Shown here piece by piece: positions 2,411 to 50,480 of a stretch of DNA of 64,000 nt (position 1 is the stretch's first letter; each line of letters opens with the position of its first letter). The position numbers and the translations under genes were made by a program. Source of the DNA: Heptranchias perlo (Eukaryota); NCBI RefSeq assembly GCF_035084215.1, contig NC_090347.1:25668001-25732000 (forward strand). Direction: 5' to 3'. The notes below the pieces were generated by a model. That model did not search any database, was not told the DNA's origin, and saw only the letters and a list, made by a program, of their open reading frames with translations.

Positions 2411-2644
2411 CCTTTTTTTCTGGACTTAAAGAACCTATTTAAAACATTAGAACAATACAGCTAACATTATTGGAGAATAATCCGTTTTGGAGACAGTTTG
2501 TTTTTGACCCTTTATGTACTCAAATGCTATATTTATACTGCGTAAGCATTATACATTATTTGAGACTGGGAGCTACATTACGGGTTCAAGACAGGCAATA
2601 TGGTGCCTGTCCTGAAGTGTAATTCTGCTGCTCAGAAAAGAGCT

Positions 2645-2881
2645 CTGTGTATACATACTTATGCTGTGGTCTGCATGTACATACCTGCTTACACTGTAGT
2701 CTGTGTATGCATACTTACACTATGATCTGCACATGCATACTTACACTGTGATCTGCACAAACATGCTTACACTATGGACTGCGCATGCATACTTACACAG
2801 TGGTATGCACATACATGCTTATGCTGTGGTCTGCACATACATGCTTACGCTATGACCTGCAAATACATACTTATGGTGTGG
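2645..2881. repeat. 26-bp minisatellite, left (more diverged) part
   Basis: About 9 degenerate copies of CACTGTGGTCTGCACATACATGCTTA. Confidence 0.9.
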
Positions 2882-3642
2882 TGTAAGGAAATATAGTTTT
2901 CACACAAATGTATGAGGAATTCAAAGGGTTAGACTTAACGGGGTTATGGGTGAGAAACAACAGGAACCAGCCTTAGTGCAATAATACTCGTGGTTAAAAA
3001 CACACAACCATGCTACCTGAGGCAAAAACAGTGAAACAAAGGATGGGCCTGTATGTCCGAACATGTCGCTAAGCAACTACATTCCAGAATCAAGGAAGAA
3101 TGATTGATGGGCCCCTAAAAGTGCTGAAAAGGGAACCATCTATAAGTGGCTTAAGTTTGCAGCAGTAAAAAGGGGGGCTAGGGGTTAACTCAGTTTATAA
3201 GTAGCCAGCCCCTACTCAGACTCAGGGTAGAGGACAGAAAAAGAAAGTACCAGGCAGGTAAACAAGAACAAGAGTACATGAAGGAATGGGGAATGAGTTT
3301 GCAGCTTCTACCCAAAGGACACCAGGGTAACATAATTCTCAACCGTGCTTTGTAAACTACTGCTTAAATATTGTAATGTATTGATTCTTGCTTGTGCTAA
3401 ATAAAGTCATATGGCTATTAACCATTATGGTGTCAGTCTCGAACATTGAACGGAGAGTCAAAATTGACTACAAATTGGCGAGAGCCAGCCAAGAGACTGA
3501 CACAACAGCCATTGGCATATTTGGTGTAAGCGAGATCCGAGGACTGACGTGGACTGATATCACCTAGTCAGTTAAGGATGGGAACCTTCAGGGAGTGTAG
3601 GGCATTGCGACCTGCCAGAACAGAGGGTCAAAATTGACTACA
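2882..3642 (+). mobile_element. Internally deleted LTR retroelement: 5' LTR 2882-3472, PBS, short internal piece, last ~16 nt of 3' LTR
   Basis: TG..CA ends, TATAA motifs and AATAAA (~3400) inside the LTR, terminal GTCAAAATTGACTACA at both 3457-3472 and 3627-3642, 4-bp TSD GTGG (2878-2881, 3643-3646). Confidence 0.85.
3476..3495 (+). promoter_or_regulatory. Primer binding site, tRNA-Arg(ACG) type
   Basis: TGGCGAGAGCCAGCCAAGAG versus the complement of the tRNA-Arg(ACG) 3' end, TGGCGAGCCAGCCAGGAG (2-nt insertion, 1 mismatch), 3 nt after the LTR end. Confidence 0.75.
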
Positions 3643-3841
3643 GTGGTCTGCACATACATGCTTACACTGTGGTCTGCACATACATGCTTACATTGTGGTC
3701 TGCACATATATGCTTACACTGTGGTCTGCACATACATGCTTACACTGTGGTCTGCACATACATGCTTACACTGTGGTCTGCACATACATGCTTACACTGT
3801 GGTCTGCACATACATGCTTACACTGTGGTCTGCACATACAT
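3643..3841. repeat. 26-bp minisatellite, right (homogeneous) part
   Basis: About 7.5 near-perfect copies of the same 26-mer; explains the periodic ORFs 3634..3975 and 3669..3914. Confidence 0.95.
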
Positions 3842-3844
3842 CTG

Positions 3845-4008
3845 TAGATACGGAGGTAGTGCCAGACGACTGGAGAATTGCAAATGTTACTCCCTTGTTC
3901 AAAAAAGGGTGTAAGGATAAACCCAACAACTATAGGCCAGTCAGTTTAACCCCTCAGTGGTGGGGAAACTTTTAGAAAAGATAATCCAGGACAGAATTAA
4001 CAGTCTGA
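3845..4008 (+). mobile_element. CR1 LINE ORF2 fragment
   Basis: VVPDDWRIANVTPLFKKG..NYRPVSLT motif. Confidence 0.85.
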
Positions 4009-7047: not shown

Positions 7048-10000
7048 TCATAAGAACATAAGAAAATAAGAAATAGGAGCAGGAGTAGGCCAATCGGCCC
7101 CTCGAGCCTGCTCCGCCATTCAATAAGATCATGGCTGATCTGATCCTAACCTCAAATCTAAATTCATGTCCAATTTCCTGCCCGCTCCCCGTAACCCCTA
7201 ATTCATTAAATAAATTTAAAACAGAAATAGACAGTTTCTATTTCTGTTTTAAATTTATTTAATGATGTAGCTTCCACAGCTTCCTTGGGCAGCAAATTCC
7301 ACAGACCTACTACCCGCTGAGTGAAGAAGTTACTCCTCATCTCAGTTTTGAAAGAGCAGCCCCTTATTCTAAGATTATGCCCCCTCGTTCTAGTTTCACC
7401 CATCCTTGGGAACATCCTTACCGCATCCACCCGATCAAGCCCCTTCACAATCTTATATGTTTCAATAAGATCGCCTCTCATTCTTCTGAACTCCAATGAG
7501 TAGAGTCCCAATCTACTCAACCTCTCCTCATATGTCCACCCCCTCATCCCCGGGATTAACCGAGTGAACCTTCTTTGTACTGTCTCGAGAGCAAGTATGT
7601 CTTTTCTTAATTATGGAGACCAAAACTGTATGTAGTATTCCAGGTGCGGTCTCACCAATACCTTATATAACTGCAGCAATACCTCCCTGTTTTTATATTC
7701 TATCCCCCTAGCAATAAAAGCCAACATTCCGTTGGCCTTCTTGATCACCTGCTGCACCTGCATACTAACTTTTTGATTTTCTTGCACTAGGACCCCCAGA
7801 TCCCTTTGTACTGCAGTACTTTCCAGTTTCTCGCCATTAAGATAATAACATGCTCTCCGATTTTTCCTGCCAAAGTGCATAACCTCACATTTTCCAATAT
7901 TGTATTGCATCTGCCAAATCTCCGTCCACTCACCCAGCCTGTCTATATCCCCTTGTAGGTTTTTTATGTCCTCCTCACTCTCTACCTTCCCTCCCATCTT
8001 TGTTTCATCTGCAAACTTTGATATGTTACACTCGGTCCCCTCCTCCAAATCGTTAATATAGATTGTAAAGAGTTGGGGACCCAGCACCGACCCCTGCGGA
8101 ACACTACTGGCTACTGGTTGCCAGTCCAAGAATGAACCATTTATCCCAACTCTCTGCTTCCTGTTAGATAACCAATCCCCCAATCCAGTGATTCTTAATC
8201 TTGAGCAATAATCTTTTATGTGGCACCTTGTCGAATGCCTTCTGGAAGTCTAAATACACTACGTCCACTGGTTCCCCTTTATCCACCCTGTACGTTATGT
8301 CCTCAAAGAACTCAAGCAAATTTGTCAGACATGACTTCCCCTTCATAAAGCCATGCTGACTTTGTCCTATTAAATTATGTTTATCCAAATGTTCCGCTAC
8401 TGTCTCCTTAATAATAGACTCCAAAATTTTACCCATCACAGATGTTAGGCTGACTGGTCTATAATTTCCAGCCTTCTGCCTACTACCCTTTTTAAATAAG
8501 GGTATCACATTAACAGTTTTCCAATCTGCCGGGACCTTTGCCGAGTCCAGAGAATTTTGGAAAATTATTACCAAAGCATCCACAATCCCTACTGCCACTT
8601 CCCTCAAGACCCTAGGATGTAAGCCATCAGGTCCAGGGGATTTATCCGCCTTGAGTCCCATTAATTTACTGAGTACCAATTCCTTAGTGATTTTAATCGT
8701 ATTTAGCTCCTCCCCGCTAGAGCCCCCTTTTTGTCCAGTAGTGGGATATTCTTAGTGTCCTCTACCGTAAAGACTGAAACAAAATATTTGTTCAGCATTT
8801 TTGCCATCTCCATGTTTCCCACCATTAATTTCCCGGTCTCATCCTCTCAGGGACCTACGTTTGCCTTAGCTACCCTTTTTCTTTTTATATAACTGTAGAA
8901 ACTCTTGCTATCTGTTTTTATATTTTTTGCTAATTTATTTTCATAATCTATCTTCCCTTTCTTAATCAATCCTTTAGTTACTTTTTGCTGTCTTTTGAAG
9001 ACTTCCCAATCTTCTATCCTCCCACTAAGTTTGGCTACCTTATATGTCCTTGTTTTTAGTTGGATACTATCCTTAATTTCTTTACTTAGCCATGGATGGC
9101 TGTCATTTCTTTCACACCCTTTTTTCCTCAGTGGAATATATTTTTTTGAAAGTTGTAAAATAACTCCTTAAATGAACACCACTGCTCATGTACCGTCTTA
9201 CCCTTTAATCTATTTTCCCAGTCCACTTTAATCAATTCCGCTCTCATACCATCATAGTCTCCTTTATTCAAGCTCAGTACGCTTGTTTGAGAACCAACCT
9301 TCTCACCCTCTAATTGGATATGGAGTGTAACCATGTTATGGTCACTCATTCCAAGGGGATCCTTAACTAGGACATTATTAATTAATCCTGGCTCATGACA
9401 CAGGACCAGGTCCAAGGTTGCTTGCCCCCTTGTAGGATCAGTTACATCCCTAATACACTCAATAAACTCTTCCTCAAGGCTGCCCTGCCCAATTTGATTT
9501 GTCCAGTTAATATGATAGTTAAAATCCCCCATAATTATAACTGTTCCCTTATTACATGCCCCAACTATTTCCTGATTAAAACTTCTTCCAGCAGTGTTGC
9601 AACTATTGGGAGGCCTATATACTACGCCCACTGGTGTTTTTTTCCCCTTATTATTCCTTATCTCTACCCAAACTGTTTCATTGTCCTGATCCTTTGTCCC
9701 AATATAATTTCTCTGTATTACAGTGATTCCTTCCTTTATTAACATAGCCACCCCACCTCCCCTTCCTCCCTGCCTGTCCTTCCTGATTGTTAAATACCCT
9801 GGTATATTTAATTCCCAGTAATTGTCACCCTGCAGCCATGTTTCTGTAATGGCCACAAGATCATACCCATACGTAGTTATTTGTGCCGTTAACTCGTCCA
9901 TTTTGTTATGAATGCTACGTGCATTCAGATAAAGAACTTTCAAATATGTTTTGTGACATTTAGTTCCTGCTTTTTCCTTTTTTAACACTTTACCTTTTAC

Positions 10001-11166: not shown

Positions 11167-11731
11167 GTCGGGGAACACTTCAGCAGTCAAGGACATTCAG
11201 CCTCCGATCTTCGGGTAAGCGTTCTCCAAGGCGGCCTTCAAGACACACGACAACGCAAAATCATCGAGCAGAAATTGATAGCCAAGTTCCGCACCCATGA
11301 GGATGGCCTCAACCGGGATCTTGGGTTCATGTCACGCTACATGTAACCCCACCAGAGAAAAAAAAGTTATCTGTTTTTATTACAACTGACCATTCTCTCT
11401 CTCTCTCTGCCTTTTGGGTGTTTGTGTCTCTCTCTCTCTGTCTTTGTAATCTGACCACTTGTGTATTCAGTGGTCTTAGGTGTAATGTTCCCCTGTCTGA
11501 ACACCATCCATGCAGAGGTGTGATAACGGGCAGTTGGAAAGATTATCTGTAATCACCAGGTATTGTTCTGTGACTATATATGCGGTGCTTTTATGGAAAC
11601 CTTCACACACCTGACGAAGGAGGAAAGCTCCGAAAGCTTGTGATTTTCAAATGGAACTGTTGGACTATAACCTGGTGTTGTAAGATTCCTTACATTTGTC
11701 CACCCCAGTCCATCACCGGCATTTCCACATC
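11167..11731 (+). mobile_element. Penelope-like element, 3' part (GIY-YIG C-terminus and 3' region)
   Basis: VGEHFSSQGH..EQKLIAKFRTHEDGLNRD* continues the sequence broken at 7047. Ends in the same CCATCACCGGCAT..CCACA tail as the palindromic mini-elements. Confidence 0.9.
11607..11643 (+). ncRNA. Minimal type I hammerhead-ribozyme-like motif
   Basis: cac-CTGACGA-a-GGAG(gaaag)CTCC-GAAA-gc-TT-gtg: conserved core boxes, stem II, short stem I and palindromic AAGCTT in place of stem III. Confidence 0.65.
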
Positions 11732-13200: not shown

Positions 13201-14786
13201 AGCACACATTCAAGCTTCTCCACTGGTACTGTTTATGAGCAATCAGTGGTAGAATGGACCTCATAGTATTAGAAAGTTAAATCTCTGGGAGAGTCAATCG
13301 AATATCTTCCGAGATGTTGCCCTGTATACTTTGCAAACCAGTTGACATTGACCTTTCCTGACAGTCCCCAAGGCCTGCAGTCCTCATTCGGAGCCTGCGC
13401 ATTGAGTTGACTGACATGCTTGGATCTCTCGTGAAGCAAGGGAAGGTTTGTAGCTGCCACTTTCTCCACCTCTTCATGTACTGTTAAATGCCAGATGTTG
13501 TAGCCTGGTATTCCCTGGCATTGTGTGCTGTCTTATCCTGCAGGAAGGATGCATGGTGTTAACTGGGGTTGCTGCAGTCTCTAGGTCCTGCTGTCACAAT
13601 CAGTCAGGTTTCATGGATTTGTGGTAACAGGCAGATGTAAGGGAACAACAACTTAGGCTGTTAAAACTTCAGTGTGTTAGCATTTATCACAGGATATGAG
13701 ACACTTAACATGGTGCTACCAAGTAACATGGTGCTACCACAAGGCACCATGATAAGGAATATGGTGCCTTGTGACACCCTAAAGGGCTTTGATTGACTAT
13801 TCTTCTTGGGATTACCCAACCGCTTCTCTATAATTCAGCTATCATCAGTTATCCTGTTATTCATCTAAAAACACTCTTACTTTTGCTGAATTGGGAAGGT
13901 CAGTGACCTTCTGACACTTCAAGGGAATTATGGAGGTCCCATACACAGCCACAGCCACCTCCTTTTACCTGGAACCATCTGTCTGCATGTCATTGCTTCT
14001 TCCCTGGTATTTGAACTACTGCATCCCTCCCTTCTCTATTTTGGGCAAGCAGCACTTCCACATTGGCCTCTGAAAAGTTAAATGCTTGTCTATTTTCGTC
14101 TTTGGCACCAGTCATTTCAGTCCCTCTGTCAAGAGCCTGCGCACCTCTTTATAACTGCATGGAGTATTAAATATGGATGTTGTACCATTCCTTCCCCCCA
14201 CCCCTGCCCGTCCTGAATTTTCTGGGCTCCCCCAGTGAATCTGGTCCCCTGCTGGTGGGTAGGCCTCCTGCCATTGTCCCAAAAACATTGAGCCAGAACT
14301 CGCTCAGAGCAGCGTGGCAACGTTCGCAGCAGTTCCTGCGAATTAAATGTACAAATGTCCTCACTGCGGGCTCCATGGAGTAGACTTGTGTGATTTGTAA
14401 GTTTTCAAAAAATGCGCGACATCAACTCAGCCTCCGAACAGCGCGGGTTGATTCTCACGGGAAGTGTTTTGTGAGAATAGAAGACTCGCCCATAAAATCT
14501 GTCAGGATGAGAAGCCATGCCCACAAGCAGGCAAGCAAAGTTCATTCATTTAAAGTTATATTCTGCAAGTCATTGTAAATAAAAAATTTAATTTTTTTAA
14601 TAAAAAGCCAAAGAAGTAATTTAATTAAATTAGAGAGACGGAAGTGAAAAGTAAAAAAAAGTTTAACTTTGTTTTTAATTTTTAATAAAATTTTTAATGA
14701 CCCAAAAATATTACAATAAGGAGTAATATGAGATGCCACATTTTTAAAATTTAAATTTTAGTTGTTCGGCAATCATTAAGAGTGAT

Positions 14787-14933
14787 TAATCACTCCTAAT
14801 GATTGCCGAACAATCATTAATCACTCCTTATGATTGCCGAACAATCATTAATCACTCCTAATGATTGCCGAACAATCATTAATCACTCCTAATGATTGCC
14901 GAACAATCATTAATCACTCCTAATGATTGCCGA
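14787..14933. repeat. 31-bp tandem repeat (4.7 copies), inverted relative to the adjacent sequence
   Basis: Unit TAATCACTCCTAATGATTGCCGAACAATCAT; it is largely the reverse complement of 14762-14788. Confidence 0.95.
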
Positions 14934-16687
14934 GTGATTATTTACGCGCTTTTCAAAAGTAGTGGTATTATTCAAAGTACCTTTTGGTAGCGTAAGTAAT
15001 TACATTCCACTTGGGCAGATGGACAAGTTTACGATGTTTCAGTGATTTCAATGATTATGCGTGCAACTCCCCTTTAATTCGCAGCTGTCAAATCGTCGGC
15101 AAACCAACAGGAGCAGGTTCATGATTTCCGGGTTTTAGTGCGCATGTGCAAATGCGTGAACTTACTCCTTCAGTTCGCCAGCGGAGACAGAGGATGCCAT
15201 TGAGGAACGGCGTTGACAGGTGAGTAATTTCTGCCCCATTATTTAAATTAGCTGACCCTGGATTTCTGAGAGGATCAGCTTCCTCTGATTTCAGCGGCCA
15301 CAAGTTCCAATCTGCCTCACTTACGCCAATGAAAAAAGGACCCGTGAATTTTAAGGAAAACTTTTCTGTCCTGGCAACATGATGAACAGACAGTTGGTCC
15401 ATCACAGCATCAAGCACATTGCTAATAAAAACCAAACTTTCCTCAGTGTACTTGAATCATCTTTCAGCATGTGGCTCATAGCCTAGCAACTCACATACAC
15501 ATATTCTTTTTGAAAGTTATTCCCATGGGACTTGATTCCTGATGTGATGGAACAGGGCCAGCAGCTAAATTGGGCTTCTGCTGAATATCAGTTCACCCTT
15601 CTCGGCCTAACCGTTGCTCATTCTGGACAGATGCTTGTTTCAATTAGGCTTTGATGTAAGATGCTTTGATTCAAGGGCCCAGCTTTCTCTTGCATTGCCT
15701 TTGGCGTCTGGCAGCAAACTCTTCTTGTGAAATGCTGTCTCTTGTGAGAGTATGATCTGTGGCAGTGAAGAGGCAGCCTTTTAGTCAGAGCGGAGACCTC
15801 TTCTTCCATTCCTTATAGTCTTTCTGTTGAGAGAACAGATCAAACATTGTTAGTGTTGAGATTAGATTAGGTAAAATTCAGCAAGACAGCCAACAAATAG
15901 AAAATGGAAATATGAGTTGAAAAATTCTCAACGGGATGGAGTCTGTAACTGACTGCCTAAAGAATACACAGCGATGGAAATGAGATGCAAGTGGGTGTCA
16001 AGTGGTTCTGCACACAGATTTTTTTCAAAACTGCTGGGGACAGATCAGATCAGTGCTATTGCTTCCTGAGCTGCAGAGTAGGAGCCTTTCATCTTAAAGT
16101 GGCAGACTGGAATTGTCAAGAAAGGACTTTATCTTTGGCTTTTTGCATTAAAATCGTTTTGCTGCTTCAGTACTTGCTCCTGAATGATGCTAGTCTCCTA
16201 CAATTAGTGACTGAGGCTGTATTCAGGACAGTGCCACATCCCCTCCCCCACCTTATGCAATTGGCTGTTTGGAAGGAGAACCAACCACAAGTCCCCTTGA
16301 CAGTTACTGAAGAAGTTCCTGGTTGTCACTTGCAACCGCATCCCTGCAACAAAGCAAAAATCCTCCCTCCCACGGCCCATACAATGACTCCATCCCATCT
16401 TGAATAAAATGAGAAGCCTTAAAACACACCCAGGACCCTTCTATTGCTGCCTCCTTAATTTTCATATCTGGACTTCGATTCCCAGTTCCTCCACACTCCA
16501 ACTGTGCTGATATCACAATGATAGATTACCAACATCCTTCTTTGCTTGAATTTCTATGATTCCATGATACCAAAATCTGAAACCAAATTTGCTGCTATAT
16601 ATTATACTGTCATCTTACACACGATGCTTAGGTTTGGGCCAAACAACAGATTATAGTATCATACCAGCTACAGATGTAAGATTGAGG

Positions 16688-16826: not shown

Positions 16827-17787
16827 GTTTCCCATGACTTATGTTATCTGCATGCTATCAGGATCACTCACCAGAAATCCAACAGACAGTTGCCTTTCTT
16901 GCCTTCCCATGAGGCACTGGGCCCTGAAGCAATCAAGCATTACATTTCCTGACTTAGTCCCTAAACCACTTGGGCATTCCCAATCTGGTTAGTTGGTTAG
17001 TTGAAATCCCCCTCCCCCACAACAATAAACCTTCCTGTTTTCGTGTGTCCTCACTCGTCAAAGACTCGGCAGTTCTCCTTGTTCTAATTCGATGATTTGT
17101 GGCAAACCCCTATTTGCATTAGAAACATCCAGCCAGAGCAATTGGCAGTAGCTGAGTTTTTTTCTTTCCTGACATAAAAAGCCCGTCTCTTCTTTTCTGT
17201 TGTATTCTTTTTGAACATTCAAAGCCTTCTATTTTGTATTCACCTCCAGCATCGAGGGAAGGCACATTTTTTGTTATTCTTATTACATCACAGCTCCTTA
17301 CTGCGACAACAGATTCAAGTACAACCATTTTTAGTACAAATGCTTCTAGCCTTCATCTACATGCACCTTTTAAGATTCATTTTTTTTTTCTTGGGTTCCA
17401 CTTCAACAGAAAAGTACGTCAATTTCACAACTTCTCTGTTAACCAAATTCATGTGATAGTCATAGGTCTGTGGTGGCAGAGGCTGCTGTTGCTGACCCCA
17501 TATTTTATTTCACATATCTCAGTTTCTTCTTTTATTTGGTCTGGCATAGTCAGATTTGAACTTTGGCCTTTCGAGAAAAGTGCTTTGAAATTTGCTTCTC
17601 ATTCAATGAAGAAAGTTTCTTTTTAATTTGCCAGAAACTGCAGCTTCAATTTAACTGGACGAAATTAATCCTCCAAAAAAGATTAAAGTACATTCTTAAC
17701 ATAGGCAAAGAGCTGGTCAGCGATTTGAGGAACAAATGAAATGGCCAGTGAGCATTGACAAAGCAGAGAAAGAACTAAATGAAACTA

Positions 17788-18320
17788 TTGTAAGGGATCT
17801 TACAACACCAGGTTATAGTCCAACAGTTTTATTTGAAAATCACAAGCTTTCGGAGGCTTTCTCCTTCGTCAGGTGAGTGTGGGATTCCATGGAAGGTACC
17901 GCATATATAGTCAGAGAACAATACCTGGTGATTACAGACAATCTTTTTGGGAAAGGAGGATTGCAAATAACTGCAAATTGTCTTGGAGGACTGCGGCAGA
18001 GTACAGAGCCCCCAAGTTGTCAAAGGTTGAAATGAAAGTGCTACTGGCCCAAATAAGGCAGAGTACGAGGGCCCAGTTTGGGACTGAACAGAGAATGCCG
18101 TTAAAAGGTCACTACCCAGAAACAAATGTAAGGAATCTTACAACACCAGGTTATAGTCCAACAGTTTTATTTGAAAATCACAAGCTTTCGGAGGCTTTCT
18201 CCTTCGTCAGGAGAAAGCCTCCGAAAGCTTGTGATTTTCAAATAAAACTGTTGGACTATAACCTGGTGTTGTAAGATTCCTTACATTTGTCCACTCCAGT
18301 CCATCACCGGCATCTCCACA
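17788..18320. mobile_element. Composite Penelope-derived insertion: inverted 3' fragment, foreign ~175-bp segment, palindromic mini-element
   Basis: Flanked by 12-bp direct repeat TAAATGAAACTA (17776-17787, 18321-18332). Palindrome 18122-18290 plus tail. Hammerhead-like motif on minus strand at 17840-17876. Confidence 0.85.
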
Positions 18321-18419
18321 TAAATGAAACTAGAAATGGAAGGATATAACCTGTAGTCTGCAGGGTGCATTGGCTTTCTTGCAGCTGCTAATACAATTAA
18401 ATATACACCAGATGACACA

Positions 18420-19720
18420 TACAAACATGACAGGAAAAGATCCACTGTCCCATACAGTCGGAATACAGACATTCCTGACCCACCCAGAGCTATGTAATCA
18501 CCTGGGAGAGGGGAAATAACAGATTAAAAACCCAGGCCAATTAAAGAAAAATATCTGGAAAATTCCTCATCAACCCCTTTAGGCAATCAAAACTCGAGTG
18601 GGAGATTATATTGACTTGGATTTAAATAACAAGGTACCTGCCTCTTGTTTGAAATGATCTCTGCCCCAGTCAGAAACAGGTCCAGCTCTCTCTTGATGGA
18701 ATTCAGGAAATCAGCGTTCACCACATGAGCCAAAAACCTGTTCCACAGGTTCACTATTCCATGGGAAAAGAACCACCTAACATCCAACCTAGTTCTGTCC
18801 TTACATAACTTGTTCTCCCTAACCTATCCAGAAATAATTGGTCCACATAAACACAATCTCATCTCTTCACTATTTTATAAACCTCAGTCAAATTGCCCGA
18901 GTCTATGCTTTTCTAAAATATACAAACGCAGCTCTTTGAGCCTATCTGGGTAATTAAGGTGTTTTAAATTGATAATTAATCTTGTGGCCCTCCTCCTCCT
19001 AAGCCTCAATATCCACCACCATGTGAGACTAAAGCTGGACACAGTATTATAACTGAGGCCTAACCAAGTTCTTGTACAAAAACAAAATGGTATGCTTTGT
19101 TTTGTAATGAATTGTCCTGTGAATATAACCTAGAACTCTGTTCACAGCATTGGTCATGAACCTTTAGAGACTGATGCACGACAACACCCAGATTTTTCAC
19201 TACTGGCTTCATTCTTGTTTTCTGTAAGGCGTATGTATATTTAGCATTAGACCTGCCCATGTGCATAACGCTACACTTTTCTAAGTTAAACATAATTTGC
19301 CCATAAACATAGGCCCATTTCCCCAACACATCAAGATCTGCTTAGAGTAGTTGTGATGTGGAGATGCCGGTGATGGACTGGGGTGGACAAATGTAAGGAA
19401 TCTTACAACACCAGGTTATAGTCCAACAGTTTTATTTGAAAATCACAAGCTTTCGGAGGCTTCCTCACCTGACGAAGGAGGAAGCCTCCGAAAGCTTGTG
19501 ATTTTCAAATAAAACTGTTGGACTATAACCTGGTGTTGTAAGATTCCTTAGAGTAGTTGAACATCGTCTACAGTCCTAACACTCACATGTATCTTGGTGT
19601 CATCTGCAAACTTGCAGATTACCTTGGTCATTAGCGAATATAGTAAATAGCAAAGGTTCTAATACTGATCCCTGTGGGATACCAATGGTAACTGGTCTAC
19701 AAGCAGATTCAATAACCATC
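18420..19720 (-). mobile_element. Old decayed CR1 LINE 3' part (interrupted at 19354-19546)
   Basis: ORFs 18587..18787 (FFSHGIVNLWN) and 19060..19329 (FNLEKCSVMHMG); KFADDTK and PQGSVL motifs near 19590-19680. Confidence 0.8.
19354..19546. mobile_element. Palindromic Penelope-derived mini-element with hammerhead-like motif
   Basis: Inverted arms 19394-19466 and 19478-19550, 40-nt unpaired tail, 13-bp TSD CTTAGAGTAGTTG (19341-19353, 19547-19559). Motif tcac-CTGACGA-a-GGAG..CTCC-GAAA-gc-TT-gtga at 19465-19501. Confidence 0.9.
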
Positions 19721-22287: not shown

Positions 22288-23825
22288 GGGGTAATTTCAA
22301 CCCTCAAGAACGGGTGTTTTGGGGGCCAGTGGGCAGGGAAAATAGGAAGTTTTCAGAGCGGGATCGCATCCCGGCTCCAATGTTCCCACATCCAGGTTTG
22401 ACCCGGGCGTGTTAGGATGCATGCGCGCAACAGACAATGGAAAGTCCCACCCCCACTTAAAGCTGGCCGGCCGATACTTAAGGGCCAATTTAGGTAGTTC
22501 AGACACTTAAGGGGGATTAAATTTATGTGGATTCTACAACAGAATCAAATTTAACTTATACTGAACCTGTCTCCTGTGGTTTCTGAAACATGCCATAGAA
22601 ACGGAGGCGAGTTGCAGCCGAAGCTCATTTGGACCTTCAAAGCAATGATTGACACATCTGAATAAAAGGTGAGATTTTGCAGCTTGGCACTTCATTTTCT
22701 CAGACAAAACTTTGACTGGGAGTTCTTTGTGTTTGGACTGAGATTTCTTTGTTGAGACCAAGAATTCTTGTGTTCAGACAAATTTTCCTACATTTTGGAC
22801 CCCCTCAAACTGACAAGATCAGGATGGGGGTGGGGGGGTGCGGAGGCACATCACCATCTGCAGCAGGCACGTTGCGCAGTTCTGGGATTTGCAGGTGCAC
22901 AAGACAGAGGTACAAGGACCTGGAGAAGAGCAGAGAGGGAACCAACGGAGGGGCCAAGGTCGCAGGAGGCACTACCCACATGAGAGGGTGTACAGGCTGA
23001 GGCTGAGCTTTCTGGACCTCCCTGAGGAGCAGTGCCTACGCAGGCTCAGATTGAGTCGGCAGGTGGTCGCAGAAATCTGCATGCTCCTTCGTGCAGAGCT
23101 GTTCCCGGCTGGGCCTGATGGCCATGCATTGCCCGTCGCAGTTAAAGAAATAACTGCCCTCAATTTCTTTGCCTCCAGATCCTTCCAGGGTGCCACGAGT
23201 GACATCTCCATGGTCTCTCAGTCATCTGAACATAAATGTATACAACAGGTCATGGATGGCTTGTTTGCCAGGGCATTGGACTACGTCAACTTCCCCCGCG
23301 ATGACATCAGCTAGGCTGAGAGGGCAGTGGGTTTCAAGTCTCTGGCTGGCTTTCTCCGGATGCAGGGCGCAATTGATTGTACAAAAGTAGCAATATGAGG
23401 ACCTCCACATGAGCCAGGACTGTTCTTCAACTGAAAGTGATATCACTCCATCACTGCACAGCTGTTTTGCGAGCACCAGAGGAGGTTTCTGCAGGTGTGT
23501 GCCAAATTCCCTGGCAGATGCCATGATTCCTTCATTTTGCACAAATCCAACATCCCAGACCTCTCCACGCACAAGACGGACTTAAGGGCTGGCTCCTTGG
23601 AGACGTGGCTCATGACACCTGTGAGAAACCCCATCAACGAGGCACAGCAGTGGTACAACCAGAGTCACAGAACCACCAGGTCTGTCATTGAATAAGCCAT
23701 ATGAATGCTGAAGATGCGCTTCAGGTGCCTGGATAAATCTGGGGGAACTCTTCAGTACTCGCCAGCGAGGGTGTGCAGATGCATACACCCATTGGGCAAA
23801 TGCCCAATGGGTGGCATCACGTCTT
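22288..23825 (+). mobile_element. PIF/Harbinger transposon, left end and decayed HARBI1-like transposase, right side lost
   Basis: End GGGGTAATTTCAACCCTCAAGAACGGGTG matches the end of the element at 50988. ORF pieces RLRLSR..LPVAVK..ALNFFAS, IDCT, FPGRCHDS, WLMTP, R..IE, LKMRFRCLD. Confidence 0.9.
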
Positions 23826-24617: not shown

Positions 24618-24750
24618 ACATCATATATATAATCATACATATATATGGTATATATCATATATTACACATGTATATATAATATATATCATATATATGTAAT
24701 ATGATATATACATTTGTAATATGTATATATCATATTACATATATATGATA
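24618..24750. repeat. AT-rich low-complexity insert containing a 29-bp perfect inverted repeat
   Basis: Arms 24684-24712 and 24722-24750 are reverse complements. Confidence 0.85.
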
Positions 24751-35440: not shown

Positions 35441-35764
35441 TGCAAAATTAAATTAATTGGTCTATTTTTTACTGATTCATGCCTCAATCGTTCCTTGAAC
35501 ATCAGAGGCTCGAAATTAGCAGGGCGGCGGGTTCTCAGCGGGGGGTCGACTTGGCGCGTGGGTAACACGCCCAGTGAAATCAGTGTGCTCCGCACGGAAT
35601 CGCAGGCTAATTGGAGCCACTTACCCGTGCTTCCGGGTTTCCCGCTGGAATGCTGTGCGGCGGGCGAACTGCGCATACGCAGAAAGGTCTGTCAGCTGGA
35701 GGAGGCCTATTTAAAGGGGCAGTCCACCAATGCTCCTCCTGCAGCAAACAACCAATGCTGAACC

Positions 35765-37618
35765 ATGGAGCAGGCCAGAGGGAAGGCTGCCCCAAGATTT
35801 TCGGACTCCTCGCTCCAGCTGCTGCTGGATGGGGTGAGGAGGAGGAGGGAAATCTTTTTCTCGTCTGATGGGAGGAAGTGCCCTCCCTCCACCACGAAGA
35901 AGGCCTGGCTGGAGGTGCCGAGGAAGTCACCAGCTGCAGCAATGTGCCACGAACCTGGGTCCAGTGCAGGGAGAGATTTAATGACCTAACCAGGTCAGGC
36001 AAAGTGAGTATACTTACGCATTCTCGCACACTCCATCTTCCACATCACCTCCACCACCACACAACTCCTTCTGCACTGCCACCACAACGCTCTCGCATCA
36101 CTCCTCACATCCACTCTACCATCATCCTCACCTTGCCTGCACGTACTCACTGCCCCTTTCCCCATTCGAATACTACCACGCAACCCAATCATCATACAAT
36201 ATCATGGCTATGTTGCACACGCACCCTCCCATGCATCTCCCTCATGCTCAACCCCACGCACACCAATGCATGCAGCGGCTCACCATGCAACCATCACTCA
36301 GTCACGCCTCTGTGTTTTGCCTTGATAGAAGAGATGCCAGAACGCCCGGGAGAGGGCACGGACCGGAGGGGGCCCGCCACACCAGGTGGCACTAACAGAC
36401 GCAGAGCAGCAGGCATTGGAGATCAGCCGCACGCTGGAGTGCCTGTCCGTGGCGGATGCCGAGGCTGGGATTCCACAAGCGGCCGGTGACAGAAAGCTAA
36501 CACTCAGCACTCATGATAGCGAATGCTCTTAGCATCACTTGGCATCTACAGCACCTCAACATCTGTCCACATGGCTAATATTGCTTTGTGTTCTCTTGCA
36601 GGGCCATCTGCAAGCGCCGTGACTGTGGAGGGCGATTCCTCAGAGGACCTGCCGGCCTCTGAGGGTCCATCGTCACATCTGAGCTATGCATCCACCAGTG
36701 CAGATACATACACCTCGGTGGGTCCCCATCCTCACTTAGTTGGGCTTGCACATGGTGAGTCACCACGCACATGTGAGCACGAGCAGACCCTGGTGGCAGG
36801 GGCAGCTGTGGAGAGTCCACGTTGGTGGGAGCACTCTTCTCCAGGCTCTGCTCAGCTGGACCCAGATGCTGAACCCTGGGGGCCAGCCATGAAAAGGAGA
36901 GTCGTCGAGGGGCAGCAGCTAATTGCCGAGGCGCTGGAACAGGTGCCACGCGCACTCTCCACAATTGCGCAGAGAATGGAGGAGTCTAACTCCTGCATGA
37001 GGGGAATGGTGGCACAGGTACAGGAGGGTATCTCTGAGATAGTGTCGCAGGGATGTGAAGGCATCTCTGAGATAGTGTCGCGGGTAGGTGTGGGAATGTC
37101 TGCAATGGAGGAAAGGCTAGCCTCCCTTGAGCGTCAAGCACGGCTCAACAATGAGTCCATTCAGGCCCTGACAACAGCCGTTCGGATTCAGGGTGAGCAA
37201 CATTCTGCCACCTTGAACAGGCTGACAGATACTTTACAAGTGGCCTTCCAAGGCCTCACACAAGTCCTCCAAACTGCTGTCCAGCAGGGTGGAAGGAGTG
37301 ATGTGGGCCTGGGCCACGAGAGGGATGATGGTGAAAGGGGACGCCACTCAAAGCGCTCCCATGTCTCACCCATTGCCCCCCTCTCAACCAGTACCCGCAA
37401 TGCTGCCCCCTCTCCAGGTGGTCGAGTCTGCCCCTGCACAGGTGCAGGTGGAGCAGTCTTTGGAGGGGCCCTCACGGGCACCCAAACCCAGAGGGCGTCG
37501 GCCCAAAGCATCTCATCGGTCAGGGCATGGACAAGAGCAACCTGCCACGACCTCTGCTGAAGCCACAGGGGTAGCACCACGTAGGGGTTCCCGGAAACGC
37601 AAGGTGAAGGTTTTGTGA
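35765..37618 (+). pseudogene. Harbinger Myb/SANT-like (NAIF1/MSANTD-type) gene, 3 exons: 35765-36003, 36329-36485, 36602-37618
   Basis: KAAPRFS..LLLDGV..KKAWLEV..QCRERFNDL, GT-AG introns with compatible phases, exon 2 RERARTGGGPP, coiled-coil exon 3, basic C-terminus RKRK. Frameshifts near 35920 and 37340. TATTTAAA box at ~35708. Confidence 0.85.
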
Positions 37619-37812
37619 GCACAAAGGAAATGCACAAGGGTGTCTGACAATTTGCCATATGTTTTACTTATATTTGTTTTATTTCACATGCACAATAAAT
37701 CTTATTATTATCACCACTACTGCCATGTCTTGCCCATTCTTGACTGGCTTGTGGAATAGGTCCCTTTCATGGGGTTCACCATGAACATGCACACTTGATG
37801 CCACCCATTGTG

Positions 37813-38286
37813 TCACTGCAGAGTGGGTGTAGGTGTATTTGCAGGGCTCTTTTGTGCAGACGACTGAGAGATGTCGGTGATGTGCCCGATGGCACACTGG
37901 AAGGATGCGGAGGAGAAGTTGAGGGCAGTGGTGACTTTGACAGCGACAGGTAAGAAGATGGTGCTCGGGCCAGCCGGGAGCAGCTTGGCATGAAGGAGGC
38001 TGCAGATGTCCACGACTACATGTCGAGTGAATCTGAGCCTCCGTGTGCGCTGCTGCTCAGAGAGGTCCAGGAAGCTGAGCCTCGGTCTGTGGACCCTGTG
38101 GCGAGGGTAGTGCCCTCTGCGACGCATCTCTCTCTGCGGTTGCCCCCCGTCCTGCTGTGCTGGTGGATGTGTCACAGCACTGTGTTGTGGAGCTCCCCAT
38201 GTCAGAGGTGGACGTTGTGGCCAGCAAGGCTGGTGATGCTGTTCGCCCTCCGAGGAGGTCATGGCTGCAGTTACGGCGGCCCCCAT
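37813..38286 (-). pseudogene. N-terminal remnant of HARBI1-like transposase (DDE domain deleted)
   Basis: MGAAV..LSFLDLSEQQ..RLRFTR..LPVAVKVTTALNF..DISQSS, then joins 3' sequence. Confidence 0.85.
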
Positions 38287-38406
38287 CCGGAAGTCTGAGG
38301 GTGTCCGCAAGGTAGGTACATGTCTCTGGACCCCGGGGTAAGTGTGCAAGTTTATGAATTTTATTGTTAGGAGGAGGGTGGTGGAGGCCAAACTATGTCC
38401 AAAGTG

Positions 38407-38622
38407 TAAACAATTTTACAACACCAAGTTATAGTCCAGCAATTTTATTTTAAATTCACAAGCTTTCGGAGGCTTCCCCCTTCCTCAGGTTCACATCGTT
38501 CACCTGAGGAAGGGGGAAGCCTCCGAAAGCTTGTGAATTTAAAATAAAATTGCTGGACTATAACTTGGTGTTGTAAAATTGTTTACAATTGTCAACCCCA
38601 GTCCATCACCGGCATCTCCACA
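38407..38622. mobile_element. Palindromic Penelope-derived mini-element with hammerhead-like motifs on both strands
   Basis: 13-bp TSD TATGTCCAAAGTG (38394-38406, 38623-38635); empty site visible in the sister Harbinger at ~43088-43100. Motif ttcac-CTGAGGA-a-GGGG..CTCC-GAAA-gc-TT-gtgaa at 38499-38537, with an inverted copy at 38455-38490. Confidence 0.92.
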
Positions 38623-39113
38623 TATGTCCAAAGTGACAGAGTGGCCTCCTGCAATGAGTGAGGGTCTCCCCACCTCCAACCTATCAAATGGACCTTTGCA
38701 GCTGCCACAGACTGATGGCTGCAACACGTCCATTTGAACTGGGAGTGTTTCCCCCAGTATGGGAAACAGTCTCAGTTCATTTCAAAATTCTACCCCTCCG
38801 AAATTATCAGGTCAATCAGGTCTGTAAACGACATGAAGTACCTGTTTAAGTACTTTAAGTGGCACCCCGCTGGCTTTAATTGCCGGCGGGAGTCCCACAT
38901 GCGGGGGCTGCGCGCGCACGTCAGCGCGTCTGTGGGGAACCCGGAAGTGGGCGGGTTGGAGCTGGGCTCCCGACCCGCCCCGGGAATCCCGGATTTTCGC
39001 AACCCCCTCCGGCCACGAACGCACCCAATCGTGGGTGTGAAAATCGAGCCCCAGATGTATTTAACCTTATATAATGGAGGAAAAAATTAGAAACTGACTA
39101 ATCAGTCATTATG

Positions 39114-41480: not shown

Positions 41481-43515
41481 GGGCTCGATATTAGGAGGGC
41501 AGCGGGTTCGCGGCGGGGGGTCTATTGGGCGCGTGGGTAATGCGCCCGCGCTCGATCGCAGGGTGATTGGATCCACTTACCTTGTCTTCCAGGTTCCCCG
41601 CTGCTGAGCTGCGCGGCGGGCGGACTGCGCATGCGCAGTAAGGTCTGTCAGCTGGAGGAGCTCTATTTAAAGGGGCAGTCCTCCACTGACTGATGCTGCA
41701 AGAAATAGGAAAAATTACAGCATGGAGCAGCCCAGGGGGAAGGCTGCTCCCAGGTTTAATGATGCCTCACTCCAGCTCTTAATGGATGGGGTGAGGAGGA
41801 GGGGGAGGACAGAGATCTTCCCCCTGGCAGGCGGGAGGAAGCAACCTGCCTCTGCCACCAAGAAGACCTGGCTCAAGGTGGCAGAGGAGGTCACCTGCAC
41901 CACCAACATATCGCCCACCTGCATACAGTGCAGGAGGCGCTGCAATGACCTAAGTAGTTCAGCCAAAGTGAGTACACTTACTCATTCCCCTACACTCCGT
42001 CTGCCACATCACCGCCCCCACCCCACATCTCCTTCTACACTGCCAACACTACTCTGTCACATCACTCCTCACACCCACTCAAACCTCATCCTCATCTTAC
42101 CTGCACTTACTCACCTCACCAGTACTCATCCCGCCACTACCACTCAACCCAATCCTCATACAATCTCATGGCTCGATCTCATACTCACCCTCTCATGCAT
42201 CTCTTTCACGGTCAGCCTCACTCAACCTGCCACTACCTGTGCTGCAGCCACAGGGCATGCATCACATATGTGCAGTAGGAAGCGTAAGGCAAACGTGTTG
42301 TGAGCATGAAGGGGATGCCCAAGGGTGTTTGAGGGTTTGTCATGGTTTTTACTTATATTTAATTTCTGACCAACTCACATTACATATTATATTGGCACCA
42401 CTACTGCCACGTCTTTGCGAATCTTGTCTGGTTTGTGCAATAATGCCCTTTCCTGAGGATCACAATGAAGACCCACACCTGATGCCACCCATTGTGTCAC
42501 TGCAGAGTGGGTGTAGGTGTATTTGCAGGGCTCTTTTGTGCAGACGACTGAGAGATGTCGGTGATGTCCCCGGTGGCACCCTGGGAGGATGCGGAGGAGA
42601 GGTTGTTGAGGGTAGTGGTGACTTTGACAGTGACAGGTAAGAAGATGGTGCTCGGGCCAGCCGGGAGCAGCTCGGCACGAAGGAGGCTGCAGATGTCCAC
42701 GACTACATGTCGAGTGACTCTGAGCCTCCATGTGCGCTGCTGCTCAGAGAGGTCCAGGAAGCTGAGCCTTGGTCTGTGGACCCTGTGGCGAGGGTAGTGC
42801 CCTCTGCGACGCATCTCTCCCTGCCTTTGCTCTCCCTCCTGCTGTACAGGTGGATGTGTCACAGCACTGTGTTGTGGAGCTCCACGTGTCAGAGGTGGAC
42901 AGCGTGGCCGGCGAGGCTGGTGATGCTGTTCGCTCTCCGAGGAGGTCATGACTGCAGCTACGGCGGCCCCCATCCGGAAGATGTACATCTGAGGGGGTCC
43001 GTAAGGTAGGTACATGTCTCTGGTCCCCGGGGTATGTGTGCAAGTTTGTGAATTTTATTGTTAGGAGGAGGGTGGTGGAGGCCAAACTTTGTCCAAAGTG
43101 ACAGAGTGGCCTCCTGCAATGAGTGAGGGTCTCCCCCCCCCCAACCTGTCAAATGGATCTTTGCAGCTGCCACAGGCTGATGGCTGCAACATGTCCATTT
43201 CAACAGGGAGTGTTTCCCCCAGTACGGGAAACAGTCCCAGTTGTTTGTAAAATCCCACCCCTCCTGAAATATTCCCTTAATCAGGTCTGTTAACGACCTG
43301 AAATATCAGAGTAAATACTGTCAAGTGGCACCCCGCCAGCTTTAATTGCCTGCGGGAGTCCCACATGCGGGGGCTGCGTGCGCATGTCAGCGCATCTGTG
43401 GGGAACCTGGAAGTGGGCGGGTTGGAGCCGGGCTCCCGACCCGCTCCGGGATTCGCCGATTTTTGGAGCCCCCCCGCCAGGAATGCACCCGATAGCGGGT
43501 GCTAATATCGAGCCC
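41481..43515. mobile_element. Shorter non-autonomous Harbinger (Myb exon 1 +, transposase N-terminus -)
   Basis: Perfect 14-bp TIR GGGCTCGATATTAG. ORF 41722 (Myb/SANT exon 1 reading into the intron at ~41968) and ORF 42497..43015. TSD imperfect (TTT/CTT). Confidence 0.93.
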
Positions 43516-47137: not shown

Positions 47138-48955
47138 ATGGAGCAGCAGAAGACGAGGCCAGCACCCCAGTTCATGTGACTCTTCACTGGAGTTGCTGTT
47201 AGCCAGTGTGAGGAGCAGGAGGCAAACATTCTACCTGGCGGACAAGAGGAAGCACCCTGCCTCTGCCACCAAGAAGGCCTGGCTTGAGGTGGCAGAGGAG
47301 GTGATCAGCAGGAGCACCATCTCAAGGACTTAGATGCAGCGCAGAAAGCGCTTCAATGATCTAATCAGGTTCGGAAACATGAGTACAGTTACTGATTCAC
47401 CTGCATTACCCCCCCTCACACACAGCCCTACGATGCCTACTCCATCACTTCTCTCCTCACACTCACTTAAGGCTCAGTGTCAGGTTACCTTCACTTTCTG
47501 TGCACTTCCTCACCTCCCCATTTGTGCACCCACCTCTACCACTCACCCAACCCTGATGTAATGTGATCAATGTGTCTGATAGTCGCCCTCTGATGCATGT
47601 TTTTCATTGTCAGCCTGACCCAGACCAATGTATCCATCGGGTGTCCCCATCACCCTCACTCACTCACACGTCTGTTCTTTCTCCACTAGTAGGGGAGGAG
47701 AGTGCAAAATGCAAGGGAAAGGAATCGGTCTGGAGGGGGGCCACCACAAATAGTGGCCCTTACAGAGGCAGAGGAGGAGGCCTTAGACTTCAGCCAGACG
47801 CTGGAGTGCCTGGCTGTTGGAGATGCCGAGATTGGCACCCCGCAAACGCCTGGTAACAGAACTTTAACATCCCTCACACACAACATGAATTGATGTTATC
47901 AATGATTGACCTGTTGCACACCTCAGTATGCTAATCGCAACATCACTTCTGCGATGATTGTTAATATTGCTGTATATTCTCTTCCAGGGCCTTCAAAGAT
48001 TGATGAAGCAGCAGACGACCTGGACAAGGGTGATTCCTCAGAGGAGCTCCAAGCCTCTAAGGAAGCACCGTCACATCATTGCGAGCCATGCATCAGCACA
48101 GATACTCACACCTCGGTGGGTCCTGTTGGACAATTAATTGGGTTGCCATCTGGTGAATCACCACTTACAAGTGCAGACACTGGTGGTAGGAGCAGCTATG
48201 GAGAATCTGAGTTGGTGGTCGCACTCCTTTCCAAGCTCCGCTCAGCTGGGTGCAGATGCTGAACCCCGGGGGCCATACTTGAGAAGGAAAATGATCGAGG
48301 TAGAGATGCAATTTGCAATGTACTGGAAGAGATGCCACACTCACTCCCCACAACAGCGGAGAGGATGGAGGAGTCCACCTCCAGCATTAGCGGAATGGTG
48401 GTGCAGGTAAGTGCAGGAGTGTCTGCGATGGAGAGAAGGCTAGCCTCCATTGAGCTTCAAGCACGGCTCAAAAATGAGTCCATTCAGGCCCTGACAACTG
48501 CCGTGCGGACTCAGGGTGACCAACATCCTGCCGCCTTAAACAGGCAGATAAATACTTTAGCATTGGCCTTACAAGGCTTTACAGATGACCTCCAAGCTGT
48601 TGTCCAGCAGAGTGGTAGGAATGAAGAGGCTCTGGCCCAGGAGAGGGATGATGGCGAAAATGGTTCTGGAAGCGGGGTCTCCACTCAAAGCGCTCCCATG
48701 TTTCACCCATTGCCCCACCCTCAACTGGTACCCAGAATGCGGCCTCCTCTCCCGATGGCCGAGTATGCCCCTGCACAGGTGCAGGTGGAGCAATCTTTGG
48801 CGGGGTCCTCGCAGGCTCCAAAACACAGAGGGCGTAGGCCAAGAGCATCTCAGTGATCAGGGCAGGGACCTGAGAAACCTGCCACTACCTCTGCTGATAG
48901 TACAAGGGATGCCCCCCGTAGAAGTAATAGGAAGAGAAAGACAAAGATTTTGTGA
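47138..48955 (+). pseudogene. Harbinger Myb/SANT-like gene, 3 exons (approx. 47138-47378, 47693-47852, 47988-48955)
   Basis: Colinear with the gene at 35765-37618 (KKAWLEVAEEV, RKRFNDL, RERNRSGGGPP, RLKNESIQALTTAVR). Has stops, frameshifts and a GT>AT first donor. Confidence 0.82.
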
Positions 48956-49150
48956 TCACCAAGGGTATGCACAAGGTTGTCAGACTAAATGTCATGTTTT
49001 TCATTTCTCTTTGTTTTTACATTCACAATAAATGTCATACTTGTCACCACCACTGCCATATCTTGTCCATTCTTGAGTCTCTTTCTTGAAAGTACACTTG
49101 TATGTGCCTCATCATGAACAGCAAGACTTGATGCCACCCATTGGGCGCGT

Positions 49151-50480
49151 TTACAATGGGTGTACGTGTGGTTTAGGACTGTTTTGTGCAAACGGAGGGG
49201 GAGGCGTGGGGGCTGGTGTTGGTGGTGGTGGACGTTCCAGTGGTCTTAATAGCTCACTATCTTCACTTTGCGGATCTCCTTTTGAGAATCTATCAAATAT
49301 GAGTGACTTCCTGGCATCACGAGCAACCAGGTGTGTTGCTGCTCTGCCGATGGGTTGCCCATTGTCCTCCTGCTCGTCCTCCTCCTCCTTTACTTCAATC
49401 CTGATGGCAGATGTGGGTGCTTTATGAGCGCAAGTGAGCTCCTCTACCTGTAACACTGTAATGTTGTGCAGGACGCAACACACGACTATTATTCTGCACA
49501 CCCTCGCCGGTGAGTACTGAAGGGAGCCTCCAGTTCGATCCAGACACCTGAAACGCATCTTCAGGATTCCAATGGCTTGTTCAATGACAGACCTGGTGGT
49601 GATGTGACTGTCATTGTACTGCTGCTGTGCCTCATTGATGGGGTTTCTCATAGGTGTCATGAGCCATGTCTGCAGGGGGTATCCCCTGTCTCCAAGGAGC
49701 CAGCCCTTAAGTCTGTCTTGTGCGTGGAAGAGGGCTGGGATGTTGGACTTGCGCAAAGTGAAGGAATCATGGCAGCTGCTAGGGAATTTGGCACACATCT
49801 GCAGAAACCACCTCCGGTGGTCACAATCCAGCTGCGCATTGATGAAGTGATATCCTTTTTGGTTGATGAACATGTATCATGTGGAGGTGCTCGGATAGCT
49901 ACGCATGTGCAATCAATTTCGCCCTGCACCTGTGGGAAGTCAGCCAGAGAGTGGGACCCCACTGCTCTCAGTCTGGCTGATGTCATTGCAGGGGATGTTG
50001 ACATAGTCAACAAGCCAACCCTGGCAAACAAGCCAACCGTGACCTGTCAAATAAACTTATGTGCAGACGACTGAGAGATCCTGGTGATGTCACCTGTGGC
50101 ATTCCAGAAGGATCCAGAGGTGAAAAAATTGAGGTTAGTGGTGACCTTATCTGTGATGGGCAATGCGTGGCCACCAGGCCCAGCTGGGAGCAGCTCTGCA
50201 TGAAGAAGCGTGCAGATGTCTACAACCACCTGGCGACTCAATCTGAGTCTTCACAGGCACTGCTCCTCAGAGAGGTCCAGGAAGCTCAGCCTCTGTCTGT
50301 AGACCCTCTCACGTGGGTAGTGCCTCCTGCGAAGTCGGCCCCTCCGTTGGTCCCCTCTCTGTTCTTCTGCAGGTCCTTGTGGCGCACCTCTATCTTGTGG
50401 ATTTGCAACTTCCAGAACTGCACGCCTTGCTTGCAGGATGTACTGTAGAATAAATCCATTGCGCCCCCCTATCCTGATGG
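49151..50480 (-). pseudogene. HARBI1-like DDE transposase
   Basis: IDCTCVAI, NQKGYH.IN.Q, FPSSCHDS, WLLGDRGYP, WLMTP, TRSVIEQAIGILKMRFRCLD, CCVLHN; frameshifted. Confidence 0.92.

Follow-up and report, generated by a model that had tools for sequence, protein, structure and literature searches.

The window (the whole 64,000-nucleotide stretch of DNA that was analysed) is repeat-rich and contains three perfect hairpins, here called A, B and C, whose arms lie at 18122–18203/18209–18290 (A, 82 bp), 19394–19466/19478–19550 (B, 73 bp) and 38405–38490/38502–38587 (C, 86 bp). The arms of all three are free of mismatches, and the loops (5, 11 and 11 nt, respectively) differ in sequence. Hairpins with arms of at least 25 bp occur five times in the window and in none of 20 shuffles. 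The remaining two (7203–7265 and 24684–24750, with arms of 29 and 30 bp) are AT-rich and unrelated to Penelope, and the one at 7203–7265 sits at the truncated edge of a LINE copy. By BLAST and profile search, we found eight pLTR copies in the window, namely a solo copy (D) and seven arms across three insertions. Their features are as follows, with pLTR positions counted from the C of the hammerhead CUGA, which is set to 0:

11167–11731 (+): reference copy D, a 5′-truncated Penelope without an inverted arm; C-terminal end of the ORF at 11167–11346, TATA at 11575–81, hammerhead CUGA at 11611 with predicted cut at 11639/40, stem-loop at 11679–94, tail at 11695–11731
17776–17787 (+): left TSD of compound insertion A, 12 bp
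17789–17946 (−): outer tail-less inverted pLTR of A, −74 to +83; TATA box at 17903–17909, initiator-like motif at 17876–82, hammerhead intact
17947–18121 (no strand): spacer of A, 175 bp, non-Penelope
18122–18211 (−): inner tail-less arm of A, −1 to +88
18209–18321 (+): tailed arm of A, +7 to +119, with a 3-nt overlap at 18209–11
18321–18332 (+): right TSD of compound A, 12 bp
19341–19353 (+): left TSD of B, 13 bp
19354–19466 (−): tailed arm of B, spanning the pLTR from +9, which is within hammerhead stem II, as far as the tail end; tail at about 19355–19391, stem-loop at 19392–19407
19464–19550 (+): tail-less arm of B, −5 to +81; intact minimal hammerhead, C of CUGA at 19469, predicted cut at 19497/19498; 3-nt overlap with the other arm at the centre (19464–66), final 4 nt common to the TSD
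19547–19559 (+): right TSD of B, 13 bp
38394–38406 (+): left TSD of C, 13 bp, the target being another repeat
38405–38490 (−): tail-less arm of C, −2 to +83, of a different subfamily (9–11 differences per 72 nt from the arms of A and B)
38490–38623 (+): tailed arm of C, −14 to +119; initiator-like motif at 38491–97, hammerhead C of CUGA at 38504, 1-nt overlap at the centre
38623–38635 (+): right TSD of C, 13 bp
43088–43100 (+): empty paralogous site of C, one target copy, 12/13 identical, no deletion

Elsewhere in the window, two open frames at 888–1253 and 1910–2269 (−) resemble immunoglobulin-domain exons of a host gene, and tandem arrays at 14747–14942 and 2624–3893 have units of 31 nt and 26 nt, the 31-nt unit being partly palindromic. 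A repeat whose frames are Myb/SANT-like and DDE-like, and which we take to be Harbinger-like, has copies at 35744–38400, 41671–43300, 48000–50450 and 22300–23800, and C is inserted in one of them.

B and C are each flanked by 13-bp TSDs (19341–53/19547–59 and 38394–406/38623–35), and that of C is backed by the empty paralog with its single target copy; in a chance control, a direct repeat of at least 12 nt was found in 2 of 2,000 random pad pairs. TSD and element overlap by 0–4 nt at the 3′ ends. For the A hairpin (18122–18320) no TSD of its own was found. It is the right-hand part of a 545-bp compound insertion, in which a 12-bp TSD (17776–87/18321–32) brackets the outer inverted pLTR (158 bp), the 175-bp spacer and the hairpin. 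An earlier note on this DNA had described all three insertions as a Penelope end joined only to its own inverted copy and each flanked by its own 12–13-bp TSD; both statements hold for B and C and fail for A, since its TSD encloses the outer arm and the spacer as well. The spacer, which has no other copy within the window and no Pfam match, was probably captured via a template jump. In one frame it weakly resembles the Myb/SANT-like peptides of other repeats in the window, at a level that is not significant (E 0.6–0.9).

All three hairpins are ends of a Penelope-like element (PLE), putatively of Neptune type; the CX2-5CxxC linker between RT and endonuclease, visible by eye in the relatives P0002 and P0018 (the window is without this part of the protein), marks the Neptune and Nematis clades alike. 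The Penelope origin given in the earlier note is borne out, as the hairpins share their pLTR with copy D, whose ORF end (59 codons) is 95% identical (56/59 amino acids) to the C-terminus of the shark protein P0002 (Pfam RVT_1) and 85% identical to P0005 (Pfam GIY-YIG); the ORF fragment of copy D alone gave no significant Pfam match. The named protein matches all come from sharks, which by homology is also the origin of the window. The characters of an EN+ PLE were thus found, namely a pLTR joined to an RT/GIY-YIG-related ORF end, a hammerhead motif in the pLTR, and an inverted tail-less copy with tail and TSD. No TSD was found for copy D (best 7 nt, off the boundary). It lies next to a CR1-like ORF1 region, with a short stretch common to both at the junction, and this together with the lack of a TSD suggests a target-site deletion. 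The family is abundant, with 12,866 contig pieces from one DNA run matching 301 bases, and a second organism also has it; exact-pattern scans of metagenome, genome and viral contigs gave no further loci. The endonuclease C-terminus of Penelope also occurs inside the shark host gene models P0004, P0014, P0020, P0026, P0028 and P0029 (XRCC5, PPP1R12A-like, FAM210B, septin 5a, follistatin-related 5 and FAM204A isoforms), by exonisation or annotation error.

The tailed arms end at +119 to +121, and the tail-less arms at +81, +83, +83 and +88, where a stem-loop of 6 bp (+68 to +83) has its 3′ foot. All four inverted arms lack the terminal tail, just as the earlier note had said, and the stretch missing from their ends is 32, 37, 37 and 39 nt long. 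The anole PLE has two RT start sites, one on either side of the tail and one of them at a stem-loop, as reported in the accessible text of PMC11167929, and the two sets of ends seen here match them. In DNA contigs, 113 low-agreement loose ends pile up at the tail end (11731), and four of the nine non-deletion joints listed leave at the stem-loop foot (11690–96). One pair of the stem-loop is compensatory, being altered on both sides in subfamily C (1/6 pairs in four sequences, which is thin evidence), and neither the stem-loop nor the hammerhead folds significantly better than shuffled sequence (z 0.09 to −1.7).

A further possible 6-bp pairing, of the tail (11706–11711 region) with a segment 5′ of the stem-loop (11659–11664), encloses the proximal start site; in alignment A4 (columns 59–64 with 105–110) it is invariant in 4/4 tailed copies and shows no covariation. 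Contig joints on 11660–11694 make up a 35-nt head-to-tail repeat that ends at the stem-loop foot in contigs of both organisms, and this could be a minisatellite that arose from the pLTR or the outcome of re-initiation several times over. A U3-dependent structural switch was also considered, and folding of copy D gave it no support.

At the other side of the arms, the 5′ ends (tailed/tail-less) are +7/−1 in A, +9/−5 in B and −14/−2 in C, with the longer arms ending at −1, −5 and −14, which places all three head-to-head junctions in the interval −14 to +9 relative to the C of CUGA. The probability of such a 24-nt cluster by chance is 0.005–0.08 for 600–150 possible positions, for a sample of three junctions picked by eye as hairpins. 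The outer arm of A extends to −74 and copy D to −444. A fold-back that is always at the hammerhead, with a different junction each time, as the earlier note had it, therefore describes all three hairpin centres and three of the four inverted arms, and the outer arm of A is the exception.

Arms overlap at the centres by 3, 3 and 1 nt of microhomology in A, B and C. Over 72 nt, the arms within a hairpin have no differences, while those of different hairpins have 1–10 (one between A and B, 9–10 between C and the others); A and B are thus nearly the same in sequence, yet their centres and tail-less ends differ. Identical arms within a unit together with differing centres indicate that each unit came from one source sequence and that its centre was made anew, which upholds the earlier proposal of fresh formation at each insertion by the Penelope RT/endonuclease. 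We consider it highly probable that the hairpins are truncated PLE insertions, freshly made. The longer arm at the centre is the tail-less one in A and B and the tailed one in C. For A and B, a lone tail-primed cDNA folding back is therefore insufficient, and another antisense strand must have taken part; C is compatible with both routes, self-fold-back or a second strand, and its loop is the natural upstream sequence of its subfamily according to the contig loose-end consensus.

The centres fall at a predicted transcription start rather than at the ribozyme cut site. A TATA box is present at −36/−37 in both copies that reach that far, and an initiator-like motif has its A at −8 in the outer arm of A (29 nt past the TATA) and at −11 in C, that is, in two of the three copies reaching it; copy D does not match the strict initiator pattern. 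TATA-plus-initiator pairs occur six times in 128,000 window positions. Base 11579 is A in about two thirds of the depth in DNA run X2 (117,128/175,001), giving TATAAA, and in 20–23% in X8 and X6. As for other PLEs, the texts available to us report a putative TATA box and initiator-like motif, 20 bp apart, in the pLTR of a rotifer (PMC3846280), transcription starts within the pLTR in Penelope and Chlamys (PMC8557442), and a TATA-less internal promoter in Drosophila Penelope (PMC2377424).

Contig loose ends, joints and depth agree weakly with run-off at this start site. The biggest 5′ loose-end pile among those listed is at 11608 (−3; 103 contigs), two of the nine non-deletion joints listed end at −5 or −8 and none at the cut, and summed depth in run X2 is 1.35–1.46 million at −73 to −52 versus 2.3–4.5 million at +4 to +91, summed depth not being copy number. 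All three signals are confounded by private changes of copy D (11607 and nearby) and by subfamilies with different upstream sequence, and seven of these nine joints resume at 11655–62, right after private bases of D, and are not placeable. Contigs of four runs matched to copy D gave one opposite-strand joint among those listed. The depth also drops at 11516 and 11582–11603, but these are places where D and other subfamilies diverge, and the drops were not accepted as signs of truncation.

The ~200-base palindromes are therefore read as the shortest insertions of a known Penelope-type element, probably minimal ones that were dead on arrival, and to the whole explanation of how they formed (double-nick priming, run-off and microhomology joining) we give a probability of about 0.6. 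The GIY-YIG endonuclease would nick both strands 12–13 nt apart, the spacing of the observed TSDs, and both 3′ ends would prime RT on pLTR RNA, with one start at the tail end (+119/+120) and the other at the stem-loop foot (+81 to +88); the end positions are those observed here, and the two start sites and the extension of both strands come from in vitro work on a related PLE. In that work on the anole element, both target strands are cut and extended and the protein needs ORF sequence past the tail (PMC11167929, as far as its accessible text goes). An mRNA offers such sequence at its 5′ pLTR, so RT may often start there. The template would accordingly be the 5′ pLTR of uncleaved, ordinary Penelope RNA that starts about 8–11 nt before CUGA, in which case RT would run off after 85–130 nt, as in a target-primed 'strong-stop' cDNA. 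The cDNA ends would then join by the 1–3 nt of microhomology seen at the centres, through annealing or the fold-back of one cDNA, with repair filling in the rest. The hammerhead would mark the junction only because it is located at the 5′ end of the RNA.

Run-off at the transcription start, taken by itself, has roughly even odds. Several observations count against it: the arm of C ends 2–3 nt upstream of its predicted initiator A, A and B end 3–7 nt short of −8, the longer-arm ends are scattered from −14 to −1, the start is placed by motifs alone, and the Drosophila Penelope promoter is TATA-less. The outer arm of A, reaching −74, also passes the predicted start, and it would thus have come from another template (a 3′ pLTR or read-through RNA). 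More broadly, and with a little less than even odds, we propose that PLEs replicate via a target-primed 'strong-stop' step, in which an RT-endonuclease acting as a dimer uses both nicks as primers on the 5′ pLTR and the cDNAs run off at the start by the hammerhead edge, and then either jump to another RNA (tandems, pLTRs, captured spacers) or meet their partner (hairpins). The accessible texts of PMC3846280 and PMC8557442 state as open how PLE inverted repeats are made and whether they arise from a sense or an antisense template; if the strong-stop reading is true, the 'antisense template' proposed for PLE palindromes would be such cDNA, and the very large number of fossil copies in shark genomes would place the transcription start and both RT start sites to the single base.

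Of the other explanations, a structural stop with self-priming survives best, though we regard it as unlikely. RT would pause in the folded hammerhead, and the stem I/II inverted repeats would give fold-back microhomology without any RNA 5′ end, which includes the antisense self-priming proposed by Arkhipova together with junction palindromes (PMC3846280, accessible text). The centres of A and B can indeed be folded on the antisense strand into a stem of 3 bp that closes a loop of 5 or 11 nt, and their shorter arms begin at stem II (+7, +9). However, the 3′ side of the structure (+33, +20) is the one that RT meets first, and the longer arms carry on beyond the 5′ side before they end; the motif also folds weakly. 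Fold-back of a tail-less cDNA also gives no tail, and so a second priming would still be required in A and B.

The earlier note had instead seen a separate, ribozyme-linked, non-coding system of the retrozyme kind, templated by a short ribozyme-defined RNA (self-cleaved, possibly circular or hairpin), which now appears improbable. The descriptor of a type I minimal hammerhead has five matches in the window, all in pLTR copies, and five of the eight copies are thus predicted to be intact; Rfam gave no hammerhead match at E up to 1. The position of all three junctions in or beside the motif fits a ribozyme, as does the apparent PLE derivation of animal retrozymes (10.64898/2026.07.22.740005, accessible text). 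By the minimal-hammerhead scheme of PMC4209133, the predicted cut falls after GAAAGCUU, between +28 and +29. All six hairpin arms keep 20–43 nt of sequence 5′ of this cut (at least 17 nt if overlaps are discounted) and span the folded motif wholly or for the most part, which means that at this point the template was uncleaved and not the 3′ cleavage product, and none of the 11 contig joints listed resumes at the predicted cut (11640). Published work points the same way: in the accessible text of PMC11167929, hammerhead mutants of the anole PLE insert normally in vitro, uncleaved RNA is used and RNA-seq read ends at the cut site were not found, and in that of PMC8557442, Naiad PLEs have the inverted copy and tail without a canonical hammerhead. 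The units are also head-to-head, whereas retrozymes are tandem monomers. What remains of the proposal is that the template has its 5′ end near the hammerhead; a special short RNA is unnecessary, since the TATA box and initiator-like motif put an ordinary start in the junction zone.

On the opposite strand, the antisense of hammerhead stem I plus CUGA reads CAG/GTGAGT (17869–17877, +), which we take to be a consensus splice donor, and inverted copies in introns could provide cryptic splice donors.

That the hairpins re-amplify as whole units, in the manner of a non-autonomous PLE family or of a DNA-transposon MITE, is just as improbable as a ribozyme-defined system. The MITE-like look and the great abundance of the family would suit it, but the near-identical A and B have different centres and different tail-less ends, the tail is on one side, homology is to a PLE end, and the TATA box is absent from all three hairpins. 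We also looked for the identical centres and short fixed TSDs of a MITE and found that the three centres all differ and that the TSDs are 12–13 bp long and of unrelated sequence; the hairpins are not MITEs, in line with the earlier note. A collapse after insertion, in which microhomology deletion removed the middle of longer inverted-pLTR insertions and gene conversion kept the arms alike, is slightly less probable still. Compound A demonstrates that a longer form exists, the centres have 1–3 nt of microhomology, and microhomology deletions in PLEs have been reported (PMC3846280, accessible text), but three independent deletions would need endpoints in the same 24 nt, and the insertions look young because their TSDs are perfect. 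Perfect palindromes are sometimes artefactual, but an assembly or library fold-back artefact is negligible here given the TSDs at the unit flanks, the empty paralog of C and an asymmetry that tracks Penelope landmarks.

Long hairpins of this kind can mislead annotation. Rfam miRNA precursor matches (best 55.9 bits versus a gathering threshold of 83) were rejected, as they reflect generic long hairpins, and annotators should be warned that such palindromes are neither MITEs nor miRNA genes. When transcribed, long perfect hairpins could feed small-RNA silencing or A-to-I editing.

Most of the anatomy is already known from canonical EN+ PLEs, which carry an inverted truncated pLTR copy head-to-head and an optional 30–40-bp tail (Arkhipova et al. 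2013, PMC3846280; Craig et al. 2021, PMC8557442). In the accessible parts of these sources, such elements have, like the hairpins, a tail at one end, a TSD of about 10 bp, a junction palindrome and unrelated DNA captured between pLTRs, and the 'undescribed system' of the earlier note is to that extent already published. Here, by comparison, both halves are only 85–130 nt long and meet in one 24-nt zone, and no ORF is left. Our literature search found no account of pLTR-only hairpins or of a link to the start site, although older subscription papers and figure supplements may hold one.

A close biochemical parallel is Poseidon of Anolis carolinensis in vitro (Frangieh et al. 2024, PMC11167929), which has two tail-bracketing RT starts, one at a stem-loop, as here, and in which, as in our proposal, both strands are cut and extended on uncleaved RNA by a predicted dimer; it belongs to another clade, and the accessible text treats neither inverted copies nor the in vivo ends of the cDNA. 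Animal non-LTR retrozymes (Cervera and de la Peña 2020, PMC7229834; Li et al. 2026, 10.64898/2026.07.22.740005) are likewise small, non-coding and PLE-related with a type I hammerhead, according to the accessible texts. Retrozymes form head-to-tail tandem units bounded by hammerheads, with circular RNA (PMC7229834, accessible text), whereas the units here are head-to-head and their ends are unrelated to the cut.

MITEs of DNA transposons share the size and palindromic look of the hairpins, but have symmetric TIRs, a short superfamily-specific TSD and a shared interior, in contrast to the one-sided tail, long variable TSD, variable centre and retroelement homology found here. In L1 twin priming, a second nick primes the inverted segment, and the inversions copy non-overlapping parts of one RNA, whereas both arms here copy the same part. 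Retroviral minus-strand strong-stop DNA is a short, tRNA-primed cDNA that runs off the RNA 5′ end, whereas the primer proposed here is the target DNA. Against this background, what remains of use is a rule, open to testing, on the place at which the two halves join. The junctions of such stubs bear on the copying mode of a poorly understood class of elements and on the role of its hammerhead, and the junctions of one shark assembly combined with 5′-end RNA data could separate run-off, structural pausing and ribozyme cleavage.
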